Below, piece after piece: positions 3,561 to 32,551 of a stretch of 64,000 nucleotides of DNA. The position numbers and the translations under genes were made by a program. This DNA comes from Psammoneis japonica. Its lineage: Eukaryota. How positions within the stretch are numbered: position 1 is the stretch's first letter; each line of letters starts with the position of its first letter. The stretch covers positions 1 to 64,000 of the forward strand of contig QPGO01000085.1 in the NCBI GenBank assembly GCA_008632985.1, given 5' to 3'. Under the pieces are notes generated by a model. That model was not told the origin of the DNA and ran no database searches. It saw nothing but the letters and a program-made list of their open reading frames with translations.

Positions 3561-4240
3561 TCAGCTTGAGACATTCTTGGCTCAAACAAAAACAACATGC
3601 AGAGTGGCACACTCTCCACAGTTCTTGCATTTGCCAAGCAAACTGAGGCTTGCTCATGCCGCCACATGTGCAAGCCCGATGCAAAACTGGTGCACAGCAG
3701 CAGAGATGTGTTGTTGAAAACAACATGCATCCAGCCAAGGCCCAAGTGGAAGCACACACAGGAGGACAGAAAGCTTGAGCTCATCTGTGTAAATGACAAA
3801 CAAAAAAATGACAAGAGATGAGACTGCCAATGTGCCACAGGGCAGTTGGCACTCATCAAACAAGAACAAAAACCTAAATGTGGGACTGGCTGGACAGTGG
3901 CCAGACATTGCATGTGGCCACCCTCTCGTTTTACCCAGAATCATCCTGTCATTTTGAGTGCCAGATGGGTGTCATCACGGTTCTTTGTTCGCCGTGTCGC
4001 GCACATGTGCTCTGCGGCTGTCATTCTAAATTACAGTTCAGGCTTCACACGGTCGCACCGGTTTGGTGGCAGCACCACTGCGCGGACAGAGTGGCCAAAG
4101 TAGATCAATCAACAGGAGAGACGGCATTGGGACGTGTTCTTCGCCTCTCAATGCCGCCCATGGAGCACTGACCCACCATGTAAAATTCTTTCCTCAGGAC
4201 TCTACTAGCTGATGTTCTTATTCTACCTTTAACTAAACTT

Positions 4241-9534: not shown

Positions 9535-9839
9535 TACCGGGATATTTAGAAGTCAACGTTACCGTGAGTTATTGATGGCGATAGATGTCGAAGCTAGGAT
9601 TTGCCCCATAGTCCAATGTCTAAATACTCACTACTTCAGTTCATATCACAGCGTCACTAGAGTGTCATTGATCGCCAATTTTGCTTCTTGGGTGGACATT
9701 TTAATGCACTCCATTTTACCACGCATCTCGTAGCATTAGTTCACACCTGTTCCTGGAGCTTATCCCGAGGATAAACCCAGCTTCACATTTCAGTCTCAGC
9801 TTGTCTTGCTCTGCTAGAGTTGGAACAGCTCTCCACAAT

Positions 9840-10805
9840 GGTTGAGTTAATCAGCTTGGAGCTGCCCAAGACAATCCCTGCACCCTCATCTTCACAGACC
9901 AATTTGGGCATGAGCTCCCTGACCACCCTGACACCACTGAAGAAGACGACCATGACTCCCTGCATGATGACCCTGATGATGATGCATCCATGGACACTTC
10001 CTGGCCCAGCTGCACCATCAACAGCAGTGATCCCGATGGCAATGACAAGAAAGATGATGACCCCAGACTGCTGCCTCTCTCCCCCCTTGCCCCCCTGCAG
10101 AGGGGTGGATCTGCTGCCACCAGCAAACCAGCAAGCACAGGAGTGAGAGGCACCAACTGGGGCAGCATGACAAATGTGATGTGCCAGCGCAGGCATCAAG
10201 GAGGACACCAAAACATCTGTGGGCTCCAACTTCTGCATGATGCAGGCATGCAGATGCAAAACAAGACAAGAGACCAGCAGATCCAGTGCCAAGACAGCAG
10301 ACTGGTGCAAACAACAGATTGGTGCTGGACAATGACTCAAACTGTGTGTGTGAATCCCTCGCCCAACCTGAGGTCAAGCATGAGCTGGACTCCAGCAAAT
10401 GAAGATTTGGATGAAGATGAAAAAGATGACAAGGCAAAGGAGCAGATGCAGAGCTTGCCAAGCACATGGGTTGCATCTGCAGAACAAGAGACCACCACCC
10501 ACAAAAACCTTTGAAGTCAGAGAAAGGGGCACTGCAATGATCACACCACAACAAAGAGCTCCTGGGTTGGCAGCTGTGCTTCTCATTCTCAAATGCTTCA
10601 AAAACCTCATGGTGGAAATGCTGCTGCTCCTCACAGCACACATGTTGACAAAGATGAGCAGAGCCAGAAGGCACCCGGCCGGCAGAGCCAAGGCTGATGT
10701 GGTCATGAAGGAAATGATGCAACTGGACCACAGGGAAGTCACTCAACTGGCAGTCACCAATGACATCTCCAGGAAGCAAATGAAAAAAGCCAGATCCAAT
10801 TTTTA
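9840..10805 (+). mobile_element. Decayed Ty1/copia pol remnant (post-integrase linker to RT N-terminus)
   Basis: VNQLGAAQDNPCTLIFTDQFGHELPD, an acidic linker with TGV, and LTKMS...ADVVMKEMMQLDHREV...DISRKQMKKA resemble diatom copia pol as I recall it. It lies in a TpA-depleted domain. Confidence 0.5.
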
Positions 10806-11936
10806 AGTGCCGCTGCTCCTTTGCCAGCCACCAGCTAACTCACACTTCCAGCACACCAAACAAGTGTGGCAGAAAAGGGGGCAAGAACCAGCCGGGATGG
10901 GCGTCACCCAGAGAAGGCAACACTCCACCAAAACAACTGAAAGGAATGACTTGCACAAGGAATTTGTTGCATGCTTGTGGTCAGTGACAGCTGCAGAAGG
11001 CACACCACAACCACAAAGAACAATCGCACTCATCAGACTGGTTCTAAAAAAAGCCACAAAACATCTTGGAATGTGCCCTCGAAACTGGCACAAACTTGGG
11101 TCACAAGGCCACTCATTTGTGCACCAAGGAGAACTGCTGCACCACAACAAGAAGTTCGCCACTCAACACAGTTAGCTGGGACAGCTGACAAGCAAAGGAA
11201 AAATTGAACAGGACTTGTTGGATGTCTTGTGAGCTGGGAGCCTTGAAAGCAAGCAAGACTTCGTCGAAGCAAAAGCCCCACCACCTGCATGCAGAAACAA
11301 CAATGGTGCCAGATGTTGCACAGAAAAACACATTCACACTTGCAAGGGACACAACAGAGGTGGCACTTTCATCCCAAAAAGTGAAAGACTTGGCCAAACA
11401 AAGAGAAAAGATGCACTGTTGAAGACTGGGGCCGGTGGCTGACATGGACAGAAGTGGTCTGGAGATGTGTGACCAGTGGATCATTGGTGGCTGCAAGGAA
11501 ACCCATGCACAAATGAAAGAACACATGTCGTGCTTTGATTCCTGTCCCATTTGCATTCCTGTCATGTCACCAGCACAGTACAACGGTGGATTTTGTCATT
11601 GATGCACCGGGTGCGACACGCAAAACCGATGCCCCGCCCCATAACGCCGACGACCGACGACCCAATCAAATAGCTGCTTTGAAATATATTATGTTTCAAC
11701 ATACACGGTATCATGTAATGTGAATCGATGAAGTCGAGGGCACCGTGTAACCGTCGAGATCATATGATAAATATATAGATTCAATACAATAATTAAAAGT
11801 ATTTTTAAATAAATTCTGGCTAAACCTGTTTTGCATCCGGATAAGATAATACGTCACAAAAAGCTTTTAAAAGCGTGTATACAGTATTAGCAAAACCGTG
11901 GCGAGACGGGGCATCTCATTTTTGGTTTTTTTTGGT

Positions 11937-13611: not shown

Positions 13612-13849
13612 AACTGTTTGAAAGTCTATAGCCATCATTTTGCATATACAAAATAATAATGAACCCACATTCGTCGAATGTGTTCGCCGCAAGCATGACG
13701 AGTGTGTTGAAGGACACGACATGGACCGAATGAGAACAGAAGATGGTCGAGATGGAGGAATGGAGCGCACAATCCCTCGAGGAAGAAAAGATCTTGGCTG
13801 TTGACCGAAGGTTGCTGCCCTCAAGAAATTATCTCAAGGCAAGAAAATT

Positions 13850-15520
13850 GAACCCAAAGGAAAAGCAAAATCCAAGGGTCAGGGCAAAAGGTGGAAAAAG
13901 AAGAAAATGTGTGGCCTAAAACCTGGGTGGGTGGAGAAGGACGAGAGGCCCATGAATGACAAGCTTCACCAGCATTGCTGCTGGAACAACAAACTGTGTT
14001 GGTGTTTTCACCATGATGCAAGTGGAAAATTTGAAAGAAAGTGGCTAATCCACCGGCCATTTGTGTGCAAAGAACAAGTGCTCATCAGTCAAAAATTGGG
14101 ACAAGGCACTGGGAAACACTAAAAACATGGAGGCACCGAACAACAAGAAGGCGGACAACTCCAACACAAAGAAGCTCAAAAAGGATTTGAAGTCCCTCAG
14201 AAACTGTCCGAAACAAAATAAAACAAAACCCAAACTCTGCACTCAAGGTGCTGCTGCACTTCTGCCCTCACATGGCTCCAGCAACACAAGCCAGCCCGCA
14301 CCCCCAGTGCACAAACTGCCCCAGGAGCATGTGACAATTGGCTGAGACAAAACCTGCTGTGTGGCAGGAGCACATGACAATTGGCTGAGAAAGGGATCAC
14401 CAACACAGGTTGTGCCACACTGCCAAAGTGGCTGGCAACAGTGTGAGTGCCCTGGCAGCCAACAGCTGAGCTTCTTGAATGCTCGACTTCTTGAGCACAC
14501 AGGTCTCTCACACCACAGCCAACCAATGCAGCCACAGCTGATGCACAGAATGAGTGAGATGTTCATCAACATCCATGTCAAACAAATGCACCTCATTCTT
14601 TGCCAGACAGTCATGTCTGCTCATGAACAAATTACCTTGATTTCAGCTTTTTAGCATCCTGGCATTGAGCCAAGGAACTTCCCAGCCTTTGATTCACAGC
14701 AATTGACATCATCACATGAATCCTGCAGTTCCTCCTGCCGCTGAGACCAAATGAAGGGGAATGATGGCCCTCATCCTGGCTGTGTGATGCAATCCACTGA
14801 CCAGCAAATGTGACATCTGAGCCTCTTTCCACAAAAGAGATGACTGAGACAGGGGCTTGCAGGGTGTTGCACCACCCTAAGTGGCCTTTGACCAAGTGCA
14901 CTGTGGCAACAGCAGCACCAGGCTTGCCAGCTGTGGAAAATTCTGAGATTTGCTAGAAAAACTGAAACATCTCACATGAAATGCCCCACTCCAGAGACAA
15001 AGCATTGGCAACATGATGCCTGTGAAAGAAGTCAGCATCCACATCAAACAATGCTCCAGCACTGGGCCAGGGAGGGACAGAGTGCAAGTTGGGAACACTC
15101 TGAACCAGGGAAAAATTGTTGCAGTGCAAACAAAAACACCTGGCAAAAACACTCAGCCACAATGTTCCAGCACCCAAAACAGGCAGAAAACAAAGGAAAC
15201 AAAGAAGGCCACACAACAAGCTGTCCAAAGCTCTCATTGCTCTTGCAGACAAGCTCAACACCTTTGGCTCTAAACAGCTGGTGGAGCAAGATGTCAAGAA
15301 GACTGGCTGTCACTGGGGGGCATCCAAGGAGCCACCATTGTTGGTGTGGTGTTCATCTTTGCAATTTGGTGCACAGCTTCACTTGTGGTCTTGCTGCTTC
15401 CACCAAAGCAATTTGTGTGGACAACTGTGGACCATTTTGCGCGGAAGATGACAGATGGAAAATCTGAAAAATGGGCGCACCAAAGATTTCTGCTGTGCTT
15501 CTCCAGTGCATTTTAACACT
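13850..15520 (+). mobile_element. Very decayed LTR-retrotransposon-like remnants (gag C-terminus / protease-like fragments)
   Basis: Basic tract followed by KLCWCFHH...KWLIHRPFVC (gag-like W-C-x-x-H...H-x-P-x-x-C), and ICVDNC...EDD (protease-like). Similarity is weak and judged by eye. Confidence 0.35.
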
Positions 15521-16458
15521 CATCAATTTCAAGTGACAGCAGGCAGACACTGCTGCAAAGTCACAAAGCACACTCATCGAAGCTGTCTGCTGTTTTGGGC
15601 AAAGATCTGGAAAAATGTTTTGCTGTGTGTTGTTTTGCTTTCAATGAGTGTGTTGTTGACCTTGTTGGACACCGCCAATCTTCTTCACAAGCACAGCATT
15701 TTCTTGTGATGCAGGAAATTGTGGAAAATGCATGGAGCAGAAGGGGTGTGTTGGAGCTCTCAGCAAACAGGCCAATGTGACATGTCAGTGGCTGGAACTT
15801 GTCTTTTGCATGTGAAAAGCATGCATGACATGTTCGCATGATTCCCTTGAATGTGTCAGAGACACTGAATTGCACACAGCTTGGGTGGGATGATCTTTCA
15901 TGCACCCAATTTCATCTGTCTGTTTTCCAAACAAAATGGACTGTTGGACCTCTGCCATCACAGTTGTTCTCAAATGCATGATCTCACAGCATCAAGAGAC
16001 AATGTTCCTTGCCCTTGTCACCAGAATCTGAGCAACTCATTGTGGCAGCACACTTTCTTGAGAGAGTGCCAGCTCACTCAGGTTGTTGTCAGGAGTCACT
16101 TGTGGAGATTGGAGAAGCCTTTGTTTTAAAATCAAGTGCACTGCCCCCCCCCCCCCTAAAAAAAAGCACTTTCACTCGGGTGGGCAAAACAAAAATTTGG
16201 AGCCACTGTGTTGTGAACAAAGGCAGACACTGCCAACATTGAAAGGGCAAATGTCTGGGCCTGGTGTTTTTCAACTTCAGTGGTGCCAGAGTTGGCCTGG
16301 TGTTCTTCAACTTCAGCAGCAGCTCCAGAGCCCTGTTGTTTGCTTGTGCACAGGATCTGGTTCCTTGGGCCAATCCTCTTGAGTTTCCTCACTTGTGTTC
16401 ATCAGGTGCAGAACTTCAGGCGCTGCAGCACAGAGGTGCTTCTGCTTGGCACTGGTGC

Positions 16459-16958
16459 AAGAGTGAATCCATGCATGTTGTTGTTGTTGCTGTTGCCTCT
16501 TGGGCAATTGTCTGACCGACGACTCTTGCACCTGATTCTGAGCGATTCATTTGAGCACTGCAGTGCACTTTCTTGTTGAGAGCACGCTGCATTCAGGGCA
16601 CACTTGTGGAGAGTGGAGATGGTTGATTCTTGTGACAATGACACATTTTTCGGGTGGATTACGCTCGTGCCATTGCGTTGTGTACTGCCAACATCGAAGG
16701 GTGAAAGAGTGAATCCATGCATGTTGTTGTTGTTGTTCTCTGGTGTGTGTCTGACTGACAACTCTTGCACCTAATTCTGAGCGATTCATTCGAGCACTGT
16801 GGTGTACTTTCTTGAGAGGACGCCGTATTCAGGGTACACTTGTGGAGAGTGGAGACGGTCGATTCCTATGATAACGATAATATTTTTCGGGTGGATTACG
16901 CTAATTTTGTGCCATTGCGTTATGTACAAGGCAAAACACTACCAACATCGAAAGGGCG
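16459..16958. repeat. Two diverged tandem ~245-bp units (16459-16703, 16705-16958)
   Basis: Both begin AAGAGTGAATCCATGCATGTTGTTG and share CACTTGTGGAGAGTGGAGA, TTTTTCGGGTGGATTACGCT and CCAACATCGAA. Confidence 0.88.
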
Positions 16959-17189
16959 CAAGTAAGGGGGCCTAGGCAGGGTTCAGCAGCACTGCTGTCT
17001 GTACTGCCTTCAGCAGCCTGAAGCTTTCGATTCTTATGATAACGATAATATTTTTCGGGTGGATTACGCTAATTTTGTGCCATTGCGTTATGTACAAGGC
17101 AAACACTACCAACATCGAAAGGGCGCAAGTAAGGGGGCCTAGGGTTCAGCAGCACTGCTGTCTGTACTGCCTTCAGCAGCCTGAAGCTT
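16859..17189. repeat. Near-identical tandem duplication (16859-17026 / 17027-17189) covering the SIT stop codon and 3' UTR
   Basis: The copies differ by about one substitution and two small indels. Confidence 0.9.
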
Positions 17190-18721: not shown

Positions 18722-19587
18722 GGTTGAATAGGATTTTTGAGTCAATCAGCTAAACAAGAGGCAAGAGACAGCAAAACTAGTGAGCGAATCAGCTACACAA
18801 GAGGCACGATCGCCTTCACACGAGTGGCGCCATGGTCGATACAAGAAACTTACAAGTTTGCTTTTATGTTTTGGTTGAACGACGACAACGAGTTGACCGA
18901 AACAAGGAAAAGTGAGAAGAAAAAGTGCGGGAGACGCATCGATAGCCGATCGCTCAATTTTCGGTGGCCTGTCATTTTTTCTACGCAAAACGGCGTATGT
19001 AGACTTGGTACAAGCCCTACGAGGGATTTGGACATGGCAGCGAACACCATTGACATTCTATTTAAGAGTGACGGTTAACAAGAATGAATTGTGTGTACGG
19101 TATGTCGATAGTGTGTGTACCGGTACATATACTGTAGTAAGGCCCAACAGTACAGTACAGTACCGGAGACAGTCGCAGCAAAAGAGCAAAAGAAACGTAC
19201 GAAGAAAAACAATATAAAACAAAATAATAACATATATAAACAAATAATGAAACCCCATAAAGTACTGTACCTTAAATAATGGTAACTCGATCTGGTAACG
19301 GTAAATTTTTAATATGTTTATAGGGTGATACATGCTGAAATTAAAAATCACTGTGAAAATTATGAGCTGATGTGCGACATCGTTAGCCTTCAGAAGGCTC
19401 AAACGTCAGCGTGACCATGGCGTGACCAACTTTCTCGAAATGATTTCAGTCGGACACAACACCTTGAACTGAATCGACAAGCGGACAAGCAAAGATGACA
19501 ATCTGAGAGTGCGAGATGAAAATCTCGAGCGAAGCATCTTGCTTTTTTGCTTGCTGACCCCAACCTCCCGCTCATCCCAACATCAAA

Positions 19588-19863
19588 TGACAGGATTTGA
19601 ACAGGATTTGGGTGCGCGTGAAGTGTCGCGCGCTGTTTAGTTTGCCGCGCACAGTTTTGTGTGCTTCAGTTCTGCGCGTTCGCGCGCGATGTAGTTTGCT
19701 TTCGAGCCACAAGGCTCACAAGAATGACAACAGCAGCCCGATCATGCCGACCCACACGTCTTTCGGCTCCTGCAACGGTCTCTGAGCGGAGACTCATCTG
19801 CCATTTAGACAGCAGCAAGGAGTCATTGTTTGAATTCTTGCCATTTGCCTTCAATTTCTGTCA
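19588..19863 (+). repeat. 5' LTR (276 bp)
   Basis: Aligns to 26408-26682 with 13 substitutions and 1 indel by my count. Confidence 0.95.
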
Positions 19864-20803
19864 GACCAACAGTCTTGCTCATTGTCAACCCACTGAGCAA
19901 CCGCCATCGTCGTCGTTGATTTGCCAACGACGCCATTTCAATTCTGCGTAGGACCTCCGCACACACTCTACATACATCGGCAAGTCCACGCGCATTCAAT
20001 GCCAGGGCATCGGCAGGAAGTTAACGTCACCGTCAAGTCTCCTTGCTGCTGGATGTCTGGATTGATTGTGCCACCTTTGATCGCTGAAGACACACATTCA
20101 ACGGTCATGTCCAAGTCTGTCCTTGATCCTCATCCCTTGACATGCCTGTTCATCGGTCAACGGTCAAGAACCCTGCATGTTCAAGGATCTTCGTCGCTGA
20201 AGACATGTGCATGTGTGCACATCTTCACGGCCAAGAACCTGCACCTGCTCTTCGGACTGCGGTTTTGCTGCCACTCTGCAAGCACACCGAGTCCATTGCA
20301 CCTGATCTGCCCCGGACTGCTGGTGCTCTGCAGTTCCACTGGGTCCACGAGGACGACTGTGAGAGCAAGCAGCCGTGATTGCAGCTTGCGTTGGGGCGAG
20401 GGTGCTTTCCCGCGTTTGTTCGTTCGTCCACAGCGCCCAACGCCTGCGTCAACTGGCCAGCCTGATCGGGAAATCCAACCGACATAAAACAAGAACGGTT
20501 CGGGGGTCTTGTCCACCTCTGGTCAGCTCACCTGCAGGGGTTTACAACCCGCCACTCCGCTCGTAAGCAACCCAAAGCGCCGCCAGCTGCGGGTTCGGAC
20601 GTGCCGGCACAACTCTACGGACCGGACAGGAAGTCCAGCACTTGACAACGAACGGGACAGCAAAGCCCGGCGACTTCTGATTTTAAGATAGATCAAGATT
20701 TCAAGTCAAGTCTGTTTCAAGTCAAGTCCATTCTCACCCAAGCTTCAAGCCTGCCTTCGCTTCCCAACAAGAATTGCTTGTCCTGACACCACTTTTGTCC
20801 ACC

Positions 20804-23800
20804 ATGGTTCTCACTCGTCAGCAACAAACCGATGGTTTCGAGCACGTTGTTGGAACCGTGCTTGCCCAAGGCGCTGGGAGCCCTCTTCGTTTGGCTTTGG
20901 CCCAAGACGGCACAGACTCGCATCAAGAACTGTTCACATTCATGCCGTCCCAAATCGACTCGCTTGAGTGCGACAACGGCACCAATGTGATCCCTTTGCC
21001 CCGTGGTCATAAGAACATGTCAGCAGCTCTGGTTGGTCTGTACATTGTCAAAGCACACAAAGGTCTTGACGTTGCCAATGACTCCTCGTTGTTCACGCAT
21101 GACGAGTTCCTTGCCCACTGCCTCAGCCCCGATTGCATGTCTTCTGTGTCCATCGGCAGCTCACCCCTCGCACCTCCGCATGTCACCAACCCGTCCAAGG
21201 CACGCGACCCGGTGCGGGACTTCAAGCGAGGCATCAAGCATGATCCCACCGCTTTCACGGCTCTCAAATCCGACAAGCAGTGGCACACTTGTGGCACAAG
21301 CCCGTGCCCAAGACGTCGAGTGCATTCTAGACTCGTCGTACAAACCGACCAGCCCCAAAGACAAACTGCTCTTTGCTGAACAGCAAAAGTGCATGTTCGC
21401 CATCTTCGAACGCATCCTTCTCACCGACAAGGGCAAGGCTCTCATCCGCGAAAATGTGGGGTCTTCTGACGCCCAGACCGTCTGCCGCGCCTTGTCTGAG
21501 CACGCGCTCGCCTCCACCCGCGCATCTGTCGAGTCCTCCACCTTGCCAACGCACCTTGCCACCGCACGTCTTGGTGATGGTGCTTGGAAAGGTCCAACCC
21601 ACGGGTTCATCCTTCATTGGCAAGATCAGTTGCACAAGTGCGAGGCACTCATCCCGGCCAGTGACCACTTCTCTGAAGGACAGAAGCGCGTCATGCTCGA
21701 GAATGCCGCACACCCTGTCGAGGAACTCCGTGCTGTCAAGAACCAAGCTGATCAGCATCGTACGCAGAGTGGCAAGAGCCTCACATACGATCAACACTGT
21801 GGCTTGCTCCTCTCCACGGCAGCTCAGTGCAACAGTGCGTTTCAACCCAAGACGACACCTCGCGCTCCCCGACGCGCCACACACGCACACGACGTCTGCT
21901 CCGAGGAACCCTCCGATGATGTGTTCTACGACATTGACAGCGACATTGACGTCCTTCAGGCCAATGCTGCCTGCACCCGCGGTCCCAGCCTCACCGGTGA
22001 CCAATGGAAACGTCTCCCTCCCGACCACCAACGGATCTGGGATTCGTTGCCCAATTCCTCCAAGGCGATCATCCTTGAGCATTCTCGTCCGCCTCCCCGC
22101 AACCCGCGAGCCAGCAACTGCCATGAGTCTGTTACGGCCAACCTTCACGACCAACGCCTTGGGAGTGACGGTGATGTCAACTTGTCCAACACGACTCCTG
22201 CTGACTCTGGTGACTCCGCTCCAAATGTGGACGCCACTTCGGACAATCCCATCCTGGCGCACCTCACCAAGCACAAGCCACTGCCACCCGGTGATCTGCA
22301 ACGTCTGTTGTCTCCTAACCAAGCCCCCAACGCCAGTTGACCGGGGCCATCCGCCGCTCCCTCTACCCCGCCAGCTTCTGCCGATGACATGGAACTTAAC
22401 GGCCGCACTTGCCGCCGCGTTGACAACCACAATGTCATTTGCTCTGCCTCTGCTCATCGCTCCACACGCACTGGTGCCCCAGTCGATCGTGGGGCCAACG
22501 GCGGCATTGCTGGCGACGACGTTCGCGTCATTGCACGCACCTCTCGCCAAGTCGACGTTCAGGGCATTGACGATCATCAATTGGTGGACATCCCCATTGT
22601 CACCGCTGGTGCCGTCATTGAGACCCAGCGTGGTCCCGTCATCGCCATCCTCCATCAGTGCGCATGCACGGGCAAGGGCAAGACCATCCATTCCTGCGGC
22701 CAGCTCGAATGGTACAAACAGGATGTCAACGATCGCTCTGTCAAGGTGCCCAACGGCTTGCAACGCATTGCCACTCCTGATGGCTATGTCATCCCCATTG
22801 ACATCAAGGCTGGCCTGCCTTGTGTTGCCATGCGACCTTACACTGACGCCGAATGGGACACCCTGCCCCATGTCATCCTCACCGGTGATGACACATGGGA
22901 CCCTTCCGTCCTCGATCACTCTGTCACTGACGATGACCAGTGGTGCGACGCGATCTCTGACCTGCAGGACGATCCCACTGCCAACCCATTTGACGAATGC
23001 GGCAACTACCGTCATCGTGTCGTTGTCAACGAGACCATCATGTCCGCTTCCTTGTCTGCCGATCACGCGTCCGCCCTCGATGATCACCTCATTCCGAACG
23101 ACGACGTGTTCTGCGAGTGTCATCTACACGCGATTGACCCCAAGGGCGACGACGTTCCGCCTCCGGAGCGCACTGTACAGCCCAAGGACCCCCCCTTCGA
23201 GTCTCTTCGGCCTTGCTTTGGCTTCCTGCCTGCCGATGCGGTCCGTCGTGCTTTTGACTGCACCACGCAGTGCGCCCGCATGCCCGCTGGTACACACCTT
23301 AGGAAGGCCTGCAAATCACCCAACCCCGCCCTTAATGTGCACCGCCGCAACGAGCCTGTCGCCACTGACACCGTTTGTGCCGACACCCCGGCCGTCGACT
23401 CTGGTTGCACCAGCGCCCAACTGTTTGTTGGCACCGAGTCTACCGTCACTGATGTCTGTGGCACCAAGACGGACAAAGAGTTTGTCAACACACTCGAGGA
23501 TCAGATCCGTGAACGTGGTGCCCCATCCAAACTCATTGGCGACCGTGCTCAAGTTGAGATCAGCAACAAAGTGCTCGGGATCCTACGCGCCCTCTTCATC
23601 TCCAGCTGGCAAAGTGAGCCTCACCAGCAACACCAAAACTTTGCCGAGCGTCGACACCAGACCGTGAAGCGCATGGCGAACACTGTCATGGACCGTTTTG
23701 GTTTGCCCGCCCACACATGGCTGCTGGCGCTCATGCATGTGTGCTTCATGCTCAACCATGCAGCGTCCCCACGGTCTCCACTGGCGCATGCCCCTCGAGA

Positions 23801-26386
23801 CTCTCACTGGCTCCACCCCGGACATCAGCCCATTGCTTCGCTTTCACTGGTGGGAACCCGTGTGCTTCCACCTCGATGACTCTGATTGGCCATCCGAATC
23901 CCGTGAGTTGCGTGGACACTTCGTTGGCATTGCTGAGCACGTCGGCCACCAGATGACCTTCAAGATTCTCTCTGACGAGACTCAGAAGATCCTCTGCCGG
24001 TCCAACGTCCGCTCCGCTGCCACCGATCCTGCCGTTCGAAACCTGCATCTTGATCCTCCTGATGGGGAGCCACCTGAACCCATCATCAAATCTCGCCATG
24101 ACGACAACCCCGTCGATTCTCCTGATGGGGAGATCAGGACACCCAAGATGCCAGTTTTCGATCCGCAAGACATCATTGGACGTACCTTCCTCATGCAGCC
24201 ACAAGAGGACGGACAACGCCACAGAGCTCGCATCGTCAAGGCCGTCGAAGACCACGAATGGAAAGTGAACGGCAATCCCGAGCTCACTGAGTTCGTCTGC
24301 TCTGTCAACAATGACGAATGCGAGGAAGTCCTTGCCTGCAATGACATCATGAATCACATTGAGCAAGAAGACGAAGACACCACTGTTTGGAAATTTCGAC
24401 GCATCGTGTCACACGAAGGACCTCTGAAGCCTCACGACCCAACCTGGAAAGGCTCAAGCTACAACATCATGCTTGAATGGGAAAGTGGGGAGATCACGTC
24501 CGAGCCTCTTGCCATCATCGCCAAGGACGACCCCGTCACCTGCACCATCTATGCACGAGAGAACGGACTCCTCGACACGGATGGCTGGAAGCGGTTCCGC
24601 ACCATCGCGAGGCGCCAAAAGAAGCCATTTCGCATGGCCAACCAAGCCAAGCTTCGCTCCTTCCGCACTGCACCTCGCTGCAAGTGCGGATGCGAAGTTC
24701 CCCAGAACTGCAAACACGCCATGTCACTGGGACGAACGCAACGGCAACCGCAAATGGGGAGACGCAACTAATCTCGAGATGGACCAACTCGACGAATACG
24801 AAGTCTTCCATGACTGCGGGCCCTTCGAGTCTTCCACTCCTCCTGCGGGACACAAGAAGATCCGAGTGCACCTGGTGTGCGACGTGAAGCACGACGGTCG
24901 CCACAAGGCACGACTCGTAGCCGACGGGCACCTCACGGATGTGCCTGTCGATGGTGTCTGCTCCGGAGCAGTCTCCCTCCGTGGCCTTCGGCTGATGATT
25001 TTCCTGGCCGAACTCAACGAGTTAGAGACATGGGCCACCGACATTGGCAGTGCCTGCCTTGAAGCCACCACCAAGGAGAAACTTTACATTGCAGCCGGAC
25101 CCGAATTTGGCAAACTCGAAGGACACATCCTTGCAATCCACAAGGCACTGCATGGACTGCGCAGCTCCGGTCTCCGCTGGCACGAGCGCTTCGCCGACTG
25201 CCTGCGAGCTGAAGGCTTCTTCCCCTGCCGCGCCGAACCCGACATTTGGATGCGCAGGAACGGCGACCACTGTGAATGCATTGCCATTTATGTGGATGAC
25301 CTCGCCATTGCCATGAAGGACCCTCAATCTTTCGTCGACACTCTCACGGAAAAGTGCAAGTTCAAGCTCAAGGGTGCGGGACCCATTGAGTTCCATCTGG
25401 GTTGCAACTTTTCCCGGGATCCCGACGGAACCTTGTGCCTGTCTCCGTGCAAGTACATCGAGCGCATGGTCGACAGCTGCGCCCGACTGTTTGGGGAGAA
25501 ACCTGCCACCAACGCCCTGTCACCTCTGGAGAAGGGTGACCACCCCGAACTGGACACTTCTGAACTGCTGGGACCCGATGGCATTCACAAGTTCCAGTCT
25601 CTTGTTGGTTCACTCCAATGGGCAGTGTCCCTTGGTCGAATTGACATTGCCACGGCCGTCATGTCACTCTCTAGCTTCCGAGCTGCGCCCCGGCAAGGCC
25701 ACTTGGATCGTGCCAAACGCGTCTGTGGGCACCTCTCCAAGATGCGACACGGTGCTCTCTGCGTTCGCACGGAAGAGCCCGACCATTCGGATCTCCCTGC
25801 TCCGGCCTATGAATGGATGCATTCGGTGCACGGCGAGGCAGAAGAGATGATCCCGAAGGACGCTCCACCGCCCCTTGGCAAGTGTGTCACCACCACCCAC
25901 TACGTCGATGCAAACTTGCACCATTGCATGCTCACCGGACGCTCTGTCATGGGAATGCTCCACTTCCTCAACAAATTCCCGGCTGATTGGTTCTCTAAGA
26001 AGCAAGCCACTGTGGAGACTGCGACCTGCGGGTCTGAATTTGTTGCCGCAAGGACTTGTGTTGAGCAGATTGTCGACCTGCGCATCACCCTGCGCCACCT
26101 TGGCGTCCCGATCCGCAGTGTCAGTCACATGTTCGGTGACAACAAGTCGTTGTAGACAGTGCCACCATCCCGCACTCCAAGTTACACAAACGACACACCG
26201 CACTGTCTTTCCACCGTGTGCGTGAGGCAATTGCCTCTGGTTGCCTTGAGCTCCACTTCATCGAAGGCTCCCGCAACCCTGCTGACATTCTCAGCAAGCA
26301 TTGGGGTTGCTCCCAAATCTGGGACCTTCTCTGCCCCCCCATGTTCTGGAACTTCATTCCATCCGAAGTCGAATCTGTTTCTGTGA
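20804..26386 (+). pseudogene. copia gag-pol, several frameshifts and systematic Tyr-to-Cys/His changes
   Basis: Gag FKRGIKHD; protease VDRGANGGIAG; integrase EPVATDTVCADTPA and SEPHQQHQNFAERR; RT DVKHDGRHKARLVA and YVDD; RNaseH GSEFVAAR, FGDN and NPADILSKHWG. Confidence 0.93.
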
Positions 26387-26407
26387 CTCCTCAAGCAAAC
26401 TGGGGAG

Positions 26408-26682
26408 TGACAGGATTTGAACAGGATTTGGGTGCGCGCGAAGCATCGCGTGCTGTTTAGTTTACCGCGCACAGTTTTGTGTGCTTTAGTTCCGCGCGTT
26501 CGCACGCGATGTAGTTTGCTTTCGAGCCACAAGGCTCACAAGAATGACAACAGCGGCCCGATTGTGCCGACCCACACGTCTTTCGGCTCCTGCAACGGTT
26601 CTGAGCGGAGACTCATCTGCCATTTAGACAGCAGCAAGGAGTTGTTGTTTGAATTCTTGCCATTTGCCTTCAATTTCTGTCA
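26408..26682 (+). repeat. 3' LTR (275 bp)
   Basis: Matches the 5' LTR; preceded by the PPT and followed by the TSD. Confidence 0.95.
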
Positions 26683-28127
26683 TCAAACCCAACAACTCCA
26701 TGACCCATGATGATGAGTGCAAGCAGCCAACTCAAAGTGAAGTGGCGCCAGGAGCAGCACCACAAAAAATGAACAAAAGAGGTGTTGTCCAAAAAGAAGA
26801 GCCACACCTTAACCCTTGCTGAAGAATGCAACAGCGCCAATGCATTGTCAGCTTGTGACTAAGTGCATTCTTCACACTCTTGGCAATTTTGTTTCTCCTT
26901 CTTGCACTCATCTCTTGCAGCAGCACTTCCGCCGCTCTGTTGCCTTTTTGCACTTCTGAGTTGTTTTTTTTTCTGCCAAATCACCTTTTTTTTGCTGCCG
27001 GCCCCGCCACCAAGAATGGTGGGCACACGACACATAAAGTGGCAGCCATGCTAACTTGACAAGCACAACTCAGACTCAGCACGAATTCACCGTTGGTGCA
27101 CTGCAGCCGCCGGGAACTGCGGAAACCACCTCGCCACATGGCGACTCTGTGGTTGCCATTTTCTCAATGGCGTTGCCTTCAAGAGCCACAACAATCAACA
27201 GTGTGTCACATCTCCTGAACTTGTGTGCAGCAAAATGTTGACACATGAGAGTGCAACATGCTTGTTGTTGACTCACATGTGATCAAAAAGCGATGGGCAG
27301 AAAAGTGAACAATGCAGCTGTTTTTGCTTCGATGAATCAACTTCAAAGCACAGTGAGGCACCATGTGCATTTGAAATGAATTAGGAGCTGTCGATGTGTG
27401 GCAGCATCATGGTGAGTTCATGGTTTTTGATGAAGTGCACTGCATTTGCAGTCCCCATTGTCATTGCGTTTTGACAAGTCGCGGAAAATTTGAGGTGTCA
27501 AACACACGTGTTTGTCAAAGGTGCGTCATTCTTCCAGCACACAGGTTTTTCACATTCCACATTCTGATGTGTGCAGAGCATTCACATTTTTGAGATGTTG
27601 CAACTTCATTGAATGATGTCACACAAGCATTGATTGCATGTTGCAAAATGCACGCAGGTCCAAACACACATCAGGCTTGCCGCCAGCAAAAAAAAAGAAC
27701 GTTTTAGCAAGAAAAAAGGGCGGGTTTGTGCTTTGGCACAGTCAACGCCACAAACTGGCTGCTGCTGGATTGTGTTCTTGCTGCATTGCCGTGCTCTTCA
27801 TTTGTGTTTTTTTGCAGAAAAAATGCAAAATTTTGGAAAAACCTGAGTTTTGAGAAGACCTGGTTGAACATGAGAAGAAGATGGGTGCTGGGCACAAGAT
27901 GCGTCACTGGCTCTCCTTTGCTCCTTCCTGGCTGGCTTGACTTTGCAATGCTCTCGGACATCCTTTTCAATTTTCCAGAAGCACTTGTTTCCATTGTCAC
28001 ATGCAGCCACTTGGGCACACATTTGAACATGTCATCAAGATCTGCTTGAGTTGGCTCAAAGCCTGGATTGATGAAGAGGAGCTGCTGTGGCAGGCACCAT
28101 CAGCCACCATGCGAACCCAGCACTTTT

Positions 28128-30902
28128 TGACAGACATCCGAGATGGGGAGTGCACTCCATGATCATCATCTGCCCTGGATGTCCATTAGATTGTCCCAAT
28201 GCCACCAGTCCGCAAGGTCATGAGCAGCAGTGAGCTGTTCCTCTTCCTCTGCACTCCTTTGTTGCAACACCCATTGTGCGATTTGGCGATTTTTCTTCGT
28301 TGAAATCGTCATCATTGTCACAGCTGTTTTTTCACCTCTTGATCTGTGATCAAACGACCACTGCAGAACACATGCCAGAGCTCTGCACAGGAATTTGATT
28401 TTTTTCCCACGCAACCATGGTGAACAAAGCCCCAAACGCCATCGATTTGACCAAGATCAAGTCGGCACTGGTTGAATTCAAACCGCACAATCGCCTGCCC
28501 GATGCACATCGTCACCTGAATGACCTTCATTCCGACGTGATGCCTGCTCCTGAAGATCTTCTGGACGGATTTACTCCTCAAGGCCTCAAGAGCGACGCTG
28601 TCACTGTTCTCCATCATGAGATTGTTCAGAACCTTGTCATTCCCCAAGCTGCGCTGACTGAAGATCTTGCACGAATCAGGCCAATCTTTGAAAAGGCCCC
28701 TCTCTTTGTGGCCACCCCTCAAGGCTCCCCGGTTCGTCTGAACCTCAGCACTCTTCAGAACGCTGTGGTCGAAGTGATCACAGAGAATCACAGTGCCACA
28801 AAGGCACATGTTGGTGCTTTGCGTTTTCATTTTCGTCCTGGTTTTCAATCTCATGATTGTTGGGATGATGCATCTGATGCTCCTTTCCCAGATTCCTCTT
28901 CTGCTCCAAGTTCTTCACCTCGGCCGGCTGCCACTGCAGGTGCCACTCCTGGAGACCTTGCCAAGGCCTCAGCCACTCATTCACCTGGTCCAAAACAGTT
29001 TGAGCAAGCTGTGACTAACGCGTTGAAGAGTGTTTGTCCTCCTGCTGAAGATTCAAACATGACTCTGCCTCCGACTGGTGTTCCACACAATGCCCATCCT
29101 AAAGGACTTCTTGAGGATGTGCCAGCTTGTGGCCAACAGGACACTTCCCCTTCCGGCAACACTCACGGATGCGGGAAAGCTGTTGTGCTTCCCACTGCAT
29201 CTGTGACCTGTCCTTCGCACTCTCATGGATTTAAGGCATCCAAGCTGGGCCCAGTTGCTGGGTCTACTGCATGTGACACTGATGCCACTGTTGCATCTCA
29301 TGTCACAGGTGCACTCGCTGTGGACACTCGGATGGATCCTTCGGGTGCTAATTCCTTGACCATCAAGTCTGCTGTGTCTGTTGTGGAATCCATTGGCAAG
29401 CCATCTGCAGTTTTGTTGATGCTGGATCCCTCGAACTTCCTGCCGAATCGATGGTGCTTCCTGCCGACGTCCACTCCTGCCAGCTTGGGACCCCGAAGTT
29501 TTTTGTTTCTGGCTGTTCTGCTGTTCCATGCAAAGATGGTCACATTTCGCCTCAAGGATGGACTGCCCTCTCTTGCCAAGGTTACACCCAAGCTGCTTGC
29601 CACCTGCGTGCCGCCGTCATCTGATGCTTGCGGCTGCTGCCAGTGCTCTGTTGGTTGTCAAGTTGATTTGCACTCAGATTTTTGGTTCGGCCGTCGTTGA
29701 TTTCAGATGTGCGATGCCGCCGTTCCTTCCATTGTCCAAACAAGACCAACAGAAGCAGGGCAGTTGTGAAAGAGGGCCATGGCGTCTCACTGCCTTCTGC
29801 CACTCCATCTCTTTCCTCCCTTGTCAGGACTGTTGTCGTGTCTAAAAGTGCTTTTCATGGTGCTCCGGACCCATCCACAATCGCTGATGATGATCCTTCA
29901 TTTTCTGATCAAGGGAGGGAGCAATGTTGTGCAGAGGAAGTGTGCAAGGTTGACAACCACACCAACTCTTCCAGTGTGTCGCCTCTTTCCTTTGCTGTCA
30001 AGACCGTTGTTGTGTCGAATGGCATTTTTCCTGGTGCTCCCCACCCATCGACCATCCCCGATGATGACCCTGCATTTGTTGATCAGGGGAAGGATTTCTG
30101 CAATGCAGAGGAAGCATGTCAGGCTGTTGAGCATCATGCTTTCCACCAAGACACCTTGCTTCATGATCACGTTTTGAACGCCGCGCGATTCTCACCTCCG
30201 ACACATCACTGTTCTTCCGACGTTGAGCGACTTTATGATGCATTTTGTTTGCCCAATGTGTTTTTCAGGGGTGACACAAATGGTGGTGGAAATGTTGGTT
30301 TGTCAGGTGGATTGCTGTTGCTTCATTTTCACCGCATCATTCGCCATGGTGGATTTCCATTTTTTTGGCCCCATCTCTTCCGATGATTTTTGGCGACAGG
30401 ATGACTCACCAGAATGTCCCGTTGCGGTCGATCATTTGTGGATTGACAAAATTCTTCCATGGTGCACGACTCCATTCATCCAAAAGATTTGTTGGGAACT
30501 GCCTTTGACATTTTTTGTCGAAGACCGATGCGTTGAGTGCGGGATGGATGTTTTCTTCCCGACATGCTCGACGCTTGATGGGATGTTGTCGTTGGTTGTC
30601 ATCATGTTTGCGGACCAAGTCTTGGCCATTTCTTTTGGTTCTTTCTCTTTGTTCCTGCTGTTCTGGTCCTCTCTTTTTATTTGGATCGTCTCTTTCTTTC
30701 TTGTTGAGCATTGCATTGCTCATCAGGGGAGGGCAACAGACATCCGAGATGGGGAGCACACTCCCTTGTGTTGGACAGACTGGCACAGACAGCATGGAGA
30801 CATCCGATGATCTCTCCTTTGCTCACTTTCTTTCTCATCTAGCACACGATTGTCATCTGTCCCAGACATCTGTTAGATTGTCCCGATGCCGCCAGTCTGT
30901 AA
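28128..30902 (+). mobile_element. Putative non-autonomous element: decayed direct repeats (28128-28215; 30734-30902) around unknown ORFs 28417-29700 and 29682-30386
   Basis: Shared ACAGACATCCGAGATGGGGAG..CACTCC and TTAGATTGTCCC.ATGCC.CCAGTC. A purine tract AGGGGAGGG (30725-30733) directly precedes the second copy. Confidence 0.5.
29810..30130 (+). repeat. Two in-frame ~174-bp (58 aa) coding repeats
   Basis: LSSLVRTVVVSKSAFHGAPDPSTIADDDPSFSDQGREQCCAEEVC versus LSFAVKTVVVSNGIFPGAPHPSTIPDDDPAFVDQGKDFCNAEEAC. Confidence 0.8.
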
Positions 30903-32551
30903 CTTTTCAAACTGTGCAATGATCTTGCCACAATGAGCACACATTTCTGTGCTTTTCCACACTGTTTTCCACCCACAAACCACGTTTTCTTTGTGTGGTG
31001 AGTGTTGCACTCCTCTCCAAGTGTCAATTGTTGCACAAAACACCCGTGCTGTGCCCCCAAAGCTGCCAACATGAGCCTGAGTGAGCCTCAAGCTGTCTCT
31101 TGGTGCAACGCTTTGGCAGGCAATGGATGACAGTGCTTCCACCATGTGACCACCTGCTGCAAACATTGCCTTCTGAGCAAAGCCTGTCTCTTGGCACCAC
31201 CCCAAAGAGTGCCTCCTTCATCAGGAAGAAAGGAGTGCCAGCATCAGACTCTCTCTCTGTCTGCCACACTTTTCTGGCTCATGCGCACCACACTCTGATG
31301 TGCCAAGTTGCACCTTCCAATCTGAAGTTTTGACGTGCAAAAGCTTTGTGCAAATTGTGAGCAACACTGCTGACTGGAGTGATTTGTGATGAATGTGCAC
31401 ACAGCCAAGAGAGTGATGATGACACACTCCACACAGGACAGGCAAACTGGCCTGTTCCAGCTCCAGGTGCTCCGCGTGGGTTCGACTCCCATCATTTGGA
31501 AATTTCTTGTGCACCTGGCGCAATTGACTTTTTCAAAATCCGTTTTTTGCCAAATCGAAGGGCAAGTGCACACTTTGCATGCATTTTGGGTGTGCACTCA
31601 CCTTTCAATTTTCGAAACGATCAAAATTGAAGGAGTTGTTTGCGCTGAACTGCGCAGAAAATCGGCCTCTCGCGTGATGAAAAGTGGATCACCTGGAGCT
31701 GGAGCAGGCCAACTCCAGAAAATCCAAACATGTGAGCCCTGCAACGGAGGAGCAATTTCAGCTCATGTTGCAGCATCATCAGAGTGTGGTTGAGCACCAA
31801 CATTGCTTCCATTGGGTGGGAATTTGATGTGCTGCTGTGCTTTGCCGCACATGTGTCGAAACACAGGTGGCTGGCCTGCGCGCTGGTGCCCCGAGCAAGC
31901 TTGTCCCCTGTCTGAGGGGGGCAAACCACCAAGCTTCACACTTGAGTGCCAGCTTGCCTTGCTTGGTGAGAGATGAACAGCCATCCACAACAGTCTGGCA
32001 GCTGATGTAGTTGGCAGCCTGCCTGTGGTGAGGGGACCGGCACGCAGGGATTGAAAAATTCGACCAAGCGCTGCACCACGATCATTGCATTGATTGATTG
32101 ACCTGTCTTCAACCGTGACGTCAGCCAAAAATTAAAGTTCAGATCGTCTGATACTGTCAATTGATTTTCATTTGCTGTGCATACTATATAAAAAGCATGT
32201 ATCCTCAAATTTCCTATATAAATATAATAAAAGACTTAAAGTACATATTCAAGATTTATTCTTTAATGTCGGGATGATTGAATGAAATGATATTTGTATC
32301 CAATGACACAAACAGGAATATTCCGGAACACAGCCGGATCCTGCAACCGAACGATTTCTGGCGGGCGGCCACTCCGGCTCGCTGTACATTTGTACCTGAT
32401 TTCTACGTATCTTTATCCGCCAGCGCAGATTTTTGATAATTTTTGGTCCACCAAGCATTCTAAAATGCAATGAAAGACAACGACGATGAGGGGCCCATTG
32501 AACGAACCAGAGCGCACCTCATCATTGTTGGCGTCACCTGACTGTGTGAGA

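Follow-up and report, generated by a model that had tools for sequence, protein, structure and literature searches.

What has removed the dinucleotide TA from several parts of a diatom genome, and does the loss reflect a mutation process in its own right? The question is raised by a stretch of Psammoneis japonica DNA of 64,000 nucleotides (here called the window), for which the original prediction had proposed a repeat-targeted, strand-symmetric TpA to TpG/CpA hypermutation, with no description in diatoms that its author knew of. The process is no longer undescribed: a 2026 preprint reports it, though not in diatoms, from the chlorarachniophyte Bigelowiella natans (B. natans), where silent NCLDV and virophage sequences integrated in the genome are hypermutated at TpA (Mettrop et al. 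2026, bioRxiv 10.64898/2026.01.13.699255).

TA-depleted domains in the window

The near-absence of TA was confirmed. In 1-kb windows its observed/expected ratio (o/e) was 0.00-0.19 over 1-3790 (D1), 9849-11578 (D2), 13831-16659 (D3), 19385-32007 (D4), and 60242-60860 (D5), against 0.58 in the remainder of the window, and the five domains (21,591 bp in total, no strand assigned) held 108 TA where 880 would be expected at the density outside them (Poisson P ~1e-238). TG and CA were raised within the domains, the TG/CA skew was at most 0.15 in every one, and the borders were abrupt, to about 50 bp. The changes are confined, as had been proposed, to sharply delimited stretches of transposon or relic DNA. 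The window also carries a silicon transporter gene (17142-18745) and a glutathione reductase whose best named matches are from diatoms (68-74% identity); no mutator gene was found within the window, in agreement with the earlier reading.

D1 (1..3790) is an old relic low in both TA and CG (TA o/e 0.06, CG 0.25, TG 1.88, CA 1.81), whose 3 ORFs lack any Pfam match; the units of a 123-bp tandem pair inside it (6-128 and 129-251) differ by 5 events, every one at a YR step (CG, TA, TG, or CA). D2 (9849..11578) is a relic of the same composition, with 4 TA in 1730 bp (o/e 0.04) and a CG o/e of 0.15; its left edge lies between the TA at 9848 and the TA at 10804, and its right edge at 11579. D3 (13831..16659; TA o/e 0.06, CG 0.13) is again a TA- and CG-poor relic, and has about single-copy read depth. 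The depletion of CpG in these older domains (o/e 0.13-0.25 in D1-D3, 0.48 in 26683-32007, and 0.90 in the copia element described below) was absent from the original prediction, as was the 619-bp island D5 (60242..60860), which has 0 TA, a CG o/e of 0.64, TG of 1.71, and CA of 1.57.

The right border of D3 cuts through a tandem array and does not coincide with a repeat boundary. One unit, dupA (16454..16685, plus strand), straddles the edge, and its twin dupB (16700-16927) lies outside. At 7 sites dupA had TG or CA where dupB had TA, with 0 sites in the opposite direction, while CG losses in the pair numbered 5 inside the domain versus 2 outside. In the control comparison of dupB with dupC, outside the domain, there were 4 substitutions, 0 of them of TA type. 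The term "repeat-targeted" goes further than these data, as D3 has about single-copy depth and the target in B. natans is single-copy (bioRxiv 10.64898/2026.01.13.699255).

A decayed copia element nested in an older repeat

D4 holds a 7.1-kb Ty1/copia LTR retrotransposon (19588-26682), recognized by its LTRs, a 5-bp target duplication, and an RVT_2 domain (24842-25477, E = 1.1e-25), and nested in an older repeat. The 5' LTR (TG...CA; 19588..19863, plus strand) is 95% identical to the 3' LTR (26408..26682, plus strand), and the target-site duplication TCAAA, read from the sequence, lies at 19583..19587 and 26683-26687 (plus strand). Between the LTRs, the pol remnant (upstream part, RT, and RNase H; 23700..26400, plus strand) is a pseudogene in three reading frames, with tblastn matches from 120 relatives in frames 1, 2, and 1. 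The older repeat continues downstream as D4c (26683..32007; TA o/e 0.06, CG 0.48), which has a summed contig depth of 530-10,600 (single copy: about 60); none of its 11 ORFs has a significant Pfam match, 10 having nothing and one a sub-threshold DUF6247 hit (E = 0.055, 14.1 bits; cutoff 26.9 bits). The 202 bp directly upstream of copia (D4a, 19385..19586; 0 TA, CG o/e 0.94) follow 400 bp with about 43 TA and are probably a left fragment of that repeat, which the copia insertion split.

In copia and the surrounding repeat TA is down 83-94% relative to base composition. When copia was compared with 76 relatives, TA was the sole dinucleotide of 16 out of range (z = -4.3), which supports the proposed TpA specificity; AA (o/e 1.08), TT (1.11), and AT were not depleted.

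The effect on coding sequence was strongest at tyrosine. At columns with Tyr in 120 relatives, copia keeps 5 of 22, with 11 read as Cys (TGY) and 4 as His (CAY), whereas other conserved residues were kept at 331 of 358 (P = 9e-14). Most sites named in the original prediction were borne out by a codon check with 117-121 relatives per column: Tyr is found in 121/121 relatives at 25055 (TGC), 119/121 at 25151 (CAT), 110/120 at 26027 (TGC), 117/119 at 26096 (CAC), 87/117 at 26126 (CAC), and 83/118 at 24851 (CAC). At 24878 (TGC) the expected Tyr was found only in part, as 42/120 relatives have Tyr and 74/120 have Phe. Columns 24679-24730, at a frameshift with two overlapping frames, are possibly misaligned.

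Among the 44 changes at conserved columns, 20 were TA to TG/CA, 5 CG to TG/CA, 4 other transitions, 11 transversions, and 4 multi-step; the last two classes show that ordinary decay is also present. TA to TG outnumbered TA to CA by 15 to 5 in the window copia, and the symmetry between strands rests on the pooled data of four loci, in which Tyr to Cys (24) and Tyr to His (22) were balanced, as predicted.

One could suppose that this composition is native, either because active elements avoid TA or through GC-biased gene conversion among more than 1000 copies. The family is indeed very abundant (summed depth 6e4-1.4e5 against about 60 at single copy), and the GC content of copia is raised to 0.568, against 0.471 +/- 0.042 in relatives. 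However, invariant Tyr residues of RT and RNase H have been replaced, pol carries frameshifts, TA alone is affected, and the loss extends to relics of single-copy depth and to a tandem unit on the host side. Moreover, most family copies have TA at 20072 and 20093, and the relatives point to normal TA and Tyr in intact members. We therefore consider a native origin extremely improbable.

Reality of the letters and recurrence elsewhere

Another possibility is that TA is truly present and that base modification in heterochromatin led to miscalls of TG or CA. The four runs all derive from a single sample and study, no platform is on record for the assembly or for run X1, and X1 may derive from the same sample as the assembly, so that its agreement does not count as independent confirmation. 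Nevertheless, X1 contigs built from exact k-mers at a depth of 56-68 cover D3, D4a, both outer edges of D4, and parts of D4c; every piece shows 0-2 substitution differences, and two of them also have 1-2 gaps. One of these contigs (2272 nt, depth 65.7) reproduces 13186-15457 in the D3 region with 0 differences, and another crosses 18686-19614 at D4a with 1.

The signature also recurs in other assemblies, in 3 of 79 environmental diatom-type copia loci (L071, L047, and L063) and in two database proteins (P0064 and P0033). L071 is nearly saturated (TA o/e 0.02; Tyr kept 1/20, with 6 Cys and 9 His), and L047 and L063, with Tyr kept at 9/18 and 10/19, show a partial TA depletion that is gradual and uniform; across the remaining 76 loci the median of Tyr retention is 0.94. 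Contigs at single-copy depth together with the environmental loci make a basecalling artefact unlikely. In addition, copia has the frameshifts and ordinary substitutions that real decay would bring, and in B. natans the same mutations were detected in lines sequenced on Illumina NovaSeq. Taken together, we judge a basecalling or assembly artefact very improbable.

Timing, rate, and sequence preference

Of the 10 substitution events that separate the two LTRs, none lies outside a YR step, and at 3 of these one LTR has TG and the other CA at one and the same site, a difference that may also derive from CG. Changes were found at 8 of 16 TA site-copies but only at 5 of 46 CG site-copies (P = 0.002). 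Per site, TA was lost several-fold faster than CpG, the difference being at least 4.6-fold in the LTRs. At 20072, 20093, and 30458 most family copies have TA where the window copy has CA; the variants listed comprise 41 of the 798 variable places, and of the 11 that fall in the repeat part 3 are of TA type. The LTR differences and the loss of 7 TA in dupA indicate that the mutations arise in the DNA itself, on both strands, and after integration.

These data bear directly on the idea that copies arrive already mutated by editing during retrotransposition, either of genomic RNA by an ADAR-like enzyme or of cDNA by a deaminase. The main target is a retroelement, and ADAR, according to the B. natans preprint, prefers to have U on the 5' side, both of which would suit this idea. 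It is already contradicted, however, by the two LTRs of one insertion differing at TA-derived sites, TG versus CA included. Furthermore, Cys and His products occur in one copy, non-coding relics, the 202-bp flank, and the flanking tandem unit are affected as well, and the targets in B. natans are DNA viruses according to the same text. We give editing very little credence.

The flanks of TA also matter. ATAT has 0 survivors in the domains against 140 outside and was the first to go in the partly mutated L047 and L063, and among the surviving TA, TTAG/CTAA were over-represented 3.8-fold and TTAA 2.7-fold. The order of sensitivity is ATAT > ATAV > BTAV, with TTAG and TTAA most resistant, and the process prefers TA with a 5' A or a 3' T.

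The original prediction had listed error-prone Pol eta-type repair of methylated DNA among its candidates. One form of it would be patch repair by non-canonical mismatch repair, set off by 5mC deamination. Errors of Pol eta favor A to G at WA, and TA and CpG are lost in the same domains. However, Pol eta also yields many A to T and A to C changes, and the nearly pure transition spectrum is a poor fit (15 transitions against 1 clear transversion at the Tyr codons). AA and TT show no deficit, CG is lost more slowly than TA and still stands at 0.90 in copia, and CpG-poor relatives retain TA. Patch repair is accordingly hardly credible.

Possible mechanisms

We conclude that the transposon-derived domains of this diatom very probably carry the accumulated footprint of a strand-symmetric, post-integration, DNA-level TpA to TpG/CpA (A:T to G:C) process of the same kind as that in B. 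natans. Taking the phenomenon as real, we tentatively favor adenine deamination as its most likely mechanism, though with less than even confidence. An enzyme recruited to silenced chromatin may deaminate adenine in duplex 5'-TA-3' to hypoxanthine on either strand, and hypoxanthine would then be fixed as G at replication or via excision of the opposite T. As TpA is self-complementary, attack on A and attack on T look the same in the sequence.

The main alternative is a mutagenic, symmetric base modification of TpA in silenced chromatin, for example a modified adenine, or 5hmU or 5fU formed when a TET/JBP-type dioxygenase oxidizes thymine. Such a base would mispair occasionally, and TpA decay would be the by-product of an epigenetic mark, like that of CpG under 5mC. 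TpA has the palindromic form that a maintainable mark would need, 5-formyluracil mispairs with G, and 5hmU in dinoflagellates favors TpA. The sharp, position-defined edges (one of them through a tandem array), CpG decay in the same domains, and the gradual, uniform depletion in L047 and L063 also speak for a mark. On the other side, a literature search on 5-hydroxymethyluracil and diatoms gave nothing relevant, and three copia loci (L037, L049, and L073) are poor in CpG yet normal in TA, indicating that 5mC alone does not cause TA loss. In B. natans no more than 11 of 15 lines showed activity of the process (bioRxiv 10.64898/2026.01.13.699255), a pattern that looks closer to that of an enzyme under regulation than to that of a mark present constitutively. 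We regard the modification as possible but rather unlikely.

Comparison with known systems

Fungal RIP follows the same logic of genome defence, with dense two-strand transitions in transposon DNA that destroy coding capacity. RIP changes C to T, mostly at CpA, makes TpA and AT-rich DNA, and requires duplicated sequence. In the diatom, by contrast, TpA is lost, the GC content goes up, and the domains affected include one of nearly single-copy depth. The decay of CpG under 5mC, which itself operates in D1-D3 and D4c, likewise loses a palindromic YR dinucleotide to TG/CA in silenced domains, but it cannot turn TAY into TGY or CAY, and CpG-poor relatives retain TA. Similarly, ADAR and APOBEC enzymes introduce deaminase-driven clustered transitions against mobile or viral nucleic acids, but they act on RNA or single-stranded cDNA with a bias to one strand, unlike the hits on both strands of integrated DNA found here. 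Where T is paired with hypoxanthine, human TDG removes the T and C takes its place (Talhaoui et al. 2014, PMC4041421). This offers a replication-independent route by which hypoxanthine:T would be fixed as G:C; in that work, however, the enzyme is human, has a TpG/CpX context giving CpG, and is not TpA-specific, and the route is not known in diatoms.

The closest system is that of B. natans. In its mutation-accumulation lines, two silent viral regions gained 231 de novo mutations, of which 230 were A to G or T to C, all on TpA; the directly measured rate was about 6e-7, and TpA-poor coding sequences were enriched for reverse-transcriptase and DDE domains (bioRxiv 10.64898/2026.01.13.699255). 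Both systems share the near-exclusive change of TpA to TpG or CpA by strand, the limitation to foreign or silent regions, and TpA depletion with a gain of CpA and TpG in clustered 1-kb windows. A term search of that text returned neither diatoms nor trinucleotide context, and methylation in the general discussion only. The hosts differ (a chlorarachniophyte of the Rhizaria and a stramenopile), as do the targets, which are integrated viruses still at 3.3% TpA in B. natans and LTR retrotransposons and relics near saturation (TA o/e 0.00-0.17) in the diatom, and the diatom provides the footprint where B. natans provides the rate. A TA-specific mutation process is rare, with direct measurement so far in this one unrelated alga, as far as the source extends. 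To that picture the present work adds post-integration evidence from the LTRs and sharp domain edges; what is new is the diatom host, the transposon targets, the near-saturation, the flank preference with ATAT most sensitive, and the accompanying CpG decay.

Results

TA-depleted domains and their limits

TA was strongly depleted over five stretches of the window, where its observed/expected ratio (o/e) in sliding 1-kb windows was 0.00-0.19 compared with 0.45-0.75 elsewhere, and in these TA-poor stretches TG and CA rose to values of 1.4-2.3. The limits of the domains, which were set by locating each TA and CG, place D1 at 1-3790, D2 at 9849-11578, D3 at 13831-16659, D4 at 19385-32007, and D5 at 60242-60860, the last of which had not been listed in the original prediction. 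Together, the five domains contain 108 TA in 21,591 bp, whereas the TA density of the other 42,409 bp would give 880 (Poisson P ~1e-238), and TA o/e outside them is 0.58. Their edges are sharp: at the left edge of D2, TA is found at 9815 and 9848 and next only at 10804, and at the left edge of D4, 43 TA within 19000-19384 are followed by the next TA at 19638. The CpG depletion of the older domains had also been missed; CG o/e is 0.25 in D1, 0.15 in D2, 0.13 in D3, and 0.48 in the right part of D4 (D4c, 26683-32007), and the copia LTR retrotransposon inside D4 combines a CG o/e of 0.90 with a TA o/e of 0.17.

Because TAA and TAG have been lost, these domains carry long open reading frames (ORFs), which are stop-free in all six frames (over 19897-26257 and in the other domains) and reach 778 aa at 21331-23667. 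None of 22 ORFs from D1, D2, D3, D4c, and D5 gave a significant Pfam match, and gene callers would annotate such ORFs as false proteins. A search of D2, D3, and D5 found no convincing terminal repeats. D5 (619 bp, CG o/e 0.64) is an island with no TA at all between ordinary genes, perhaps a fragment of a transposon or a solo LTR. Read depth over D3 was 58-154 compared with ~60 for single copy, and D3 could be an old repeat diverged beyond 85%; short tandem units outside D3 are unmutated. That the process targets repeats is unproven.

The nested insertion in D4

D4 is a nested insertion. Its copia (19588-26682) has the direct TG...CA LTRs and the 5-bp target duplication of a Ty1/copia element: its LTRs at 19588-19863 and 26408-26682 share 95% identity, each runs from TG to CA, and TCAAA lies on both sides. 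Between the LTRs lies a pol remnant with an RVT_2 match (E = 1.1e-25) that is split over three frames; the upstream parts of its relatives align at 23700-24700, and the decayed ORFs of the copia gave no Pfam match to the integrase that precedes the reverse transcriptase in Ty1/copia elements. Its closest relatives are marine and freshwater metagenome elements with up to 73% amino-acid identity, and a Cylindrotheca copia element shares 65%.

The 202 bp before the copia (D4a) are also TA-free, and the 5.3 kb after it (D4c) are nearly so; we infer that the two are parts of one older repeat, which was split by the copia. The summed read-contig depth over the right part of this older repeat was 530-10,600 compared with ~60 for single-copy sequence, and that of the copia family was 6e4-1.4e5, in 16,160 contigs. 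A summary of read variation against the window, given without sequence context, counts 671 transitions and 118 transversions among 789 variable places. Of 798 variable places, 41 were available individually; 11 of these fall in the repeat part, and 3 of the 11 are CA in the window and TA in the family. Two very small sequencing runs of the same public sample (X3 and X4) gave, over 19003-27006, contigs for the copia family only, with 90-99% likeness; either only high-copy repeats were assembled from them, or the libraries were enriched.

Direction of the change

The polarity of the change rests on three independent comparisons, namely conserved protein columns, the LTR pair, and a tandem array at the edge of D3. 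A protein column was taken as conserved when at least 80% of 120 related database proteins agree. In such columns the window copy keeps 5 of 22 Tyr compared with 331 of 358 non-Tyr residues (P = 9e-14), and a second alignment (MAFFT, 46 relatives) gave 4 of 15 and 246 of 264, respectively. As originally predicted, the conserved Tyr of the copia mostly read as Cys or His: the 17 changed columns comprise 11 Cys (TGY), 4 His (CAY), 1 Phe, and 1 doubtful case at a frameshift that is possibly misaligned. A native composition poor in TA might also be considered for this element, but the replacement of invariant Tyr argues against it. Altogether, 20 of the 44 differences in conserved columns can be written as one TA>TG or TA>CA change, codon-junction changes included (for example, AGT to GGT after a codon ending in T), and the other 24 consist of eleven transversions, five CG>TG/CA changes, four transitions of other kinds, and four changes that need several steps.

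An LTR element integrates with two identical LTRs. Those of the copia now differ by 10 substitution events, every one of which is a transition at a pyrimidine-purine (YR) step (CG, TA, TG, or CA): three are CG/TG, two CG/CA, one TA/TG, and one TA/CA, and at three sites TG stands against CA. No LTR difference was found at non-YR positions. When ancestral sites are counted as the still-shared plus the differing sites, 8 of 16 TA site-copies had changed, compared with 5 of 46 for CG (P = 0.002); the TpA change is faster than CpG decay. Editing of RNA or cDNA would place the change before insertion, and it is argued against by these LTR differences as well as by the balance of the two products (see below).

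A tandem array with units of ~168-246 bp lies at 16045-17197, upstream of the silicon transporter gene and across the right edge of D3; its units within D3 are mutated and those beyond are not. An inverted copy of the end of the array unit is located near the left edge of D3 (14046-14066 vs 16641-16661). When a unit inside D3 (16454-16650) was compared with its outside twin (16700-16892), TG or CA was found inside at 7 sites where the twin has TA, and the reverse was found at none; CG was lost at 5 sites inside and 2 outside. Two array units outside D3 are 4 substitutions apart, none of them a TA-type change, and a tandem pair within D1 shows 5 differing events, all at YR steps.

Specificity, strand balance, and flanking bases

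In comparison with 76 unmutated relatives, TA is the sole far outlier among the 16 dinucleotides of the copia (0.17 vs 0.75 +/- 0.14, z = -4.3); AA (o/e 1.08), AT, and TT are in range, and GC is 0.568 compared with 0.471 +/- 0.042. The predicted TpA specificity is thus borne out, and likewise by the 20 TA>TG/CA changes against four other transitions in the protein columns. GC-biased gene conversion could be invoked for the raised GC, but the spectrum argues against it because only TA is affected. The original prediction had also named Pol eta as a candidate, and here the spectrum speaks against it. WA-hotspot mutagenesis by this polymerase gives A>G along with A>T and A>C, AA included, whereas the Tyr codons show 15 transitions and 1 transversion, and AA is untouched.

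Strand symmetry, which had also been predicted, holds when the window copy is pooled with three environmental loci (L071, L047, and L063), with 24 Tyr to Cys and 22 Tyr to His changes (P = 0.88); the window copy by itself has 11 and 4. The TG/CA skew was considered as a sign of a single-stranded intermediate and was dropped, since the skew per domain is at most 0.15 and tracks base composition. As for flanking bases, no ATAT survives in the domains compared with 140 outside, and relative to their expected share the surviving TA are at 0.18 in ATAC/GTAT, 3.8-fold in TTAG/CTAA, and 2.7-fold in TTAA. In the copia, TA survival relative to the related elements is 0.00 for ATAT, 0.05-0.09 for ATAV, and 0.12-0.31 for BTAV (V, not T; B, not A). 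Two partly mutated environmental loci likewise lost ATAT before the other contexts (1 and 0 remain), and in these loci TA depletion is uniform, not patchy.

Real bases and recurrence in environmental loci

Contigs of run X1 (depth 56-68), from one public sample that is possibly the assembly's own source, were compared with the window. They matched at 13186-15457 (0 differences in 2272 nt), 15476-16156 (1 difference), 18686-19614 (1 difference), 27184-27698 (2 differences), 27671-28155 (0 differences), 30873-31475 (1 difference and 2 gaps), and 31674-32999 (0 differences and 1 gap). The reads therefore reproduce the letters of D3 and D4a, of some stretches of D4c, and of the left and right outer edges of D4, although this agreement is not independent proof because of the possible common source. 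Independent support for real bases comes from the same signature in other assemblies. Among 79 related metagenome copia loci, 76 show normal TA and keep a median of 0.94 of the conserved Tyr, and three carry the signature of the window; mutated copies are under-sampled in this set, since the Tyr of DIGNAYLEA was part of one of the two search patterns. L071 (TA o/e 0.02) keeps 1 of 20 Tyr, with 6 Cys and 9 His, and 320 of 347 other residues; L047 (0.31) keeps 9 of 18 (5 Cys, 4 His); and L063 (0.33) keeps 10 of 19 (2 Cys, 5 His). The signature is also present in two of the 120 database proteins, P0064 (Tyr 4 of 16, 6 Cys, 4 His) and P0033 (Tyr 10 of 18).

Three further copia loci are CpG-poor and TA-normal, namely L037 (CG 0.10, TA 0.57), L049 (0.20, 0.51), and L073 (0.27, 0.83); therefore, the TA process is no automatic companion of CpG methylation. 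These loci are transposons of CpG-methylating lineages without the TpA process, and they could be used as negative controls.

Host and neighboring genes

The window is diatom DNA: it carries a silicon transporter gene (17142-18745), and the best named matches of its glutathione reductase are from Striatella, Leptocylindrus, Chaetoceros, Eucampia, and Nitzschia (68-74% identity). The silicon transporter gene lies on the minus strand and is divided, within 17139-18745, into two overlapping frames (17139-18152 and 17804-18745). Contigs of X1 and of a further run, X2, differ from the window by 11-48 letters over 17277-18722 and have an extra G behind 17864; therefore, a diverged paralogue or allele is present, which is probably expressed, and the copy in the window may be a pseudogene or carry an assembly indel. 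One X2 contig skips 198 nt at 32609-32808 with GT..AG ends, a spliced intron, which points to X2 being an RNA run despite its label "DNA?". X2 contigs give almost no cover of the domains, and such contig data cannot show absence of expression.

Discussion

The change consists of transitions confined to TpA, affects both strands of DNA that has already integrated, and falls within domains with positional edges, one of which cuts through a tandem array. The observation behind the original prediction is thereby confirmed and its core reading is supported, with the corrections that repeat targeting is unproven, that CpG decay runs alongside, and that there is a precedent in Bigelowiella natans. 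We propose that an enzyme recruited to silenced chromatin would deaminate the adenine of duplex TpA on either strand to hypoxanthine, which would be read as G when replicated. Fixation might also proceed without replication, if the opposite T is excised by a glycosylase and replaced by C, a route that has been demonstrated for human TDG (PMC4041421). As the main alternative, T or A at TpA might carry a mutagenic modification, which the sequence cannot separate from deamination because TpA is its own complement. As had been predicted, no candidate mutator gene was found within the window. Going further than adenine deamination itself, it is conceivable, though we consider it rather unlikely, that a TpA-directed editing or marking system for silenced foreign DNA is common to Rhizaria and stramenopiles, and so maybe old within SAR, that it is saturating on transposons in some diatoms, and that it perhaps rests on a symmetric TpA mark maintained like CpG methylation. 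If true, this would be a second heritable dinucleotide mark, and TpA decay would be its footprint.

A process that mutates the A:T pairs of a single dinucleotide, and does so only in invading DNA, goes against the usual GC-to-AT bias. The process appears to have been measured directly only once, in one chlorarachniophyte (bioRxiv 10.64898/2026.01.13.699255), and the presence of its saturated footprint in a diatom, and also in several diatom-type copia lineages from the environment, suggests a wide distribution among marine algae. Comparing lineages that have the signature with those that lack it gives a handle on the enzyme, and the flank preference, with ATAT as the most sensitive context and TTAG and TTAA as resistant ones, is a fingerprint for testing candidate deaminases or dioxygenases; genetically manipulable species exist among diatoms. 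For annotation, the loss of TAA and TAG produces long false ORFs and GC is raised, and since TpA loss makes copies diverge fast, LTR dating will overestimate ages.

Among known systems, the closest is that of B. natans. Of the 302 nuclear mutations in its mutation-accumulation lines, two integrated viral regions received 231, and 230 of these 231 were TpA mutations of the A>G or T>C type, with a rate of ~6e-7 per site per generation that is raised ~1000-fold (Mettrop et al. 2026, bioRxiv 10.64898/2026.01.13.699255). The TpA mutation was seen in 11 of 15 lines only, reverse-transcriptase and DDE domains were over-represented among TpA-poor coding sequences, and an ADAT2-like deaminase was the enzyme proposed (Mettrop et al. 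2026). For the window, the LTR pair provides an indirect measure of the rate. As in B. natans, nearly all changes described here are transitions, A>G or T>C (15 of 17 Tyr columns and all 10 LTR events), and they are restricted to TpA (AA, AT, and TT being normal in the copia), yield both TpG and CpA, and are confined, here to five sharp-edged domains that include the copia and a multi-copy repeat. Fungal RIP, in contrast, is C>T at CpA with gain of TpA and AT-rich products, whereas TA in the domains falls to an o/e of 0.00-0.17 and the GC of the copia rises. RIP also requires duplicated DNA; D3, as noted above, has a read depth of 58-154 but could be an old repeat. CpG decay driven by 5mC does occur in D1-D3 and D4c, but the altered Tyr codons call for A>G or T>C, and the copia has lost TA with CG nearly intact. 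Likewise, ADAR or APOBEC editing of RNA or cDNA has a one-strand bias and leaves LTRs identical at insertion, whereas both products occur here and the LTRs differ at TA-derived sites. The original prediction knew of no description in diatoms, and none was found in the literature available to us, including Maumus et al. 2009 and a 2025 diatom transposon preprint, but the B. natans preprint means that the process as such has been described; the main text of that preprint makes no mention of diatoms, stramenopiles, or trinucleotide context, and flank data may be in its supplement. New here are thus the diatom host, an LTR retrotransposon and relics as targets, near-saturation, the flank fingerprint, and recurrence in environmental diatom-type elements.
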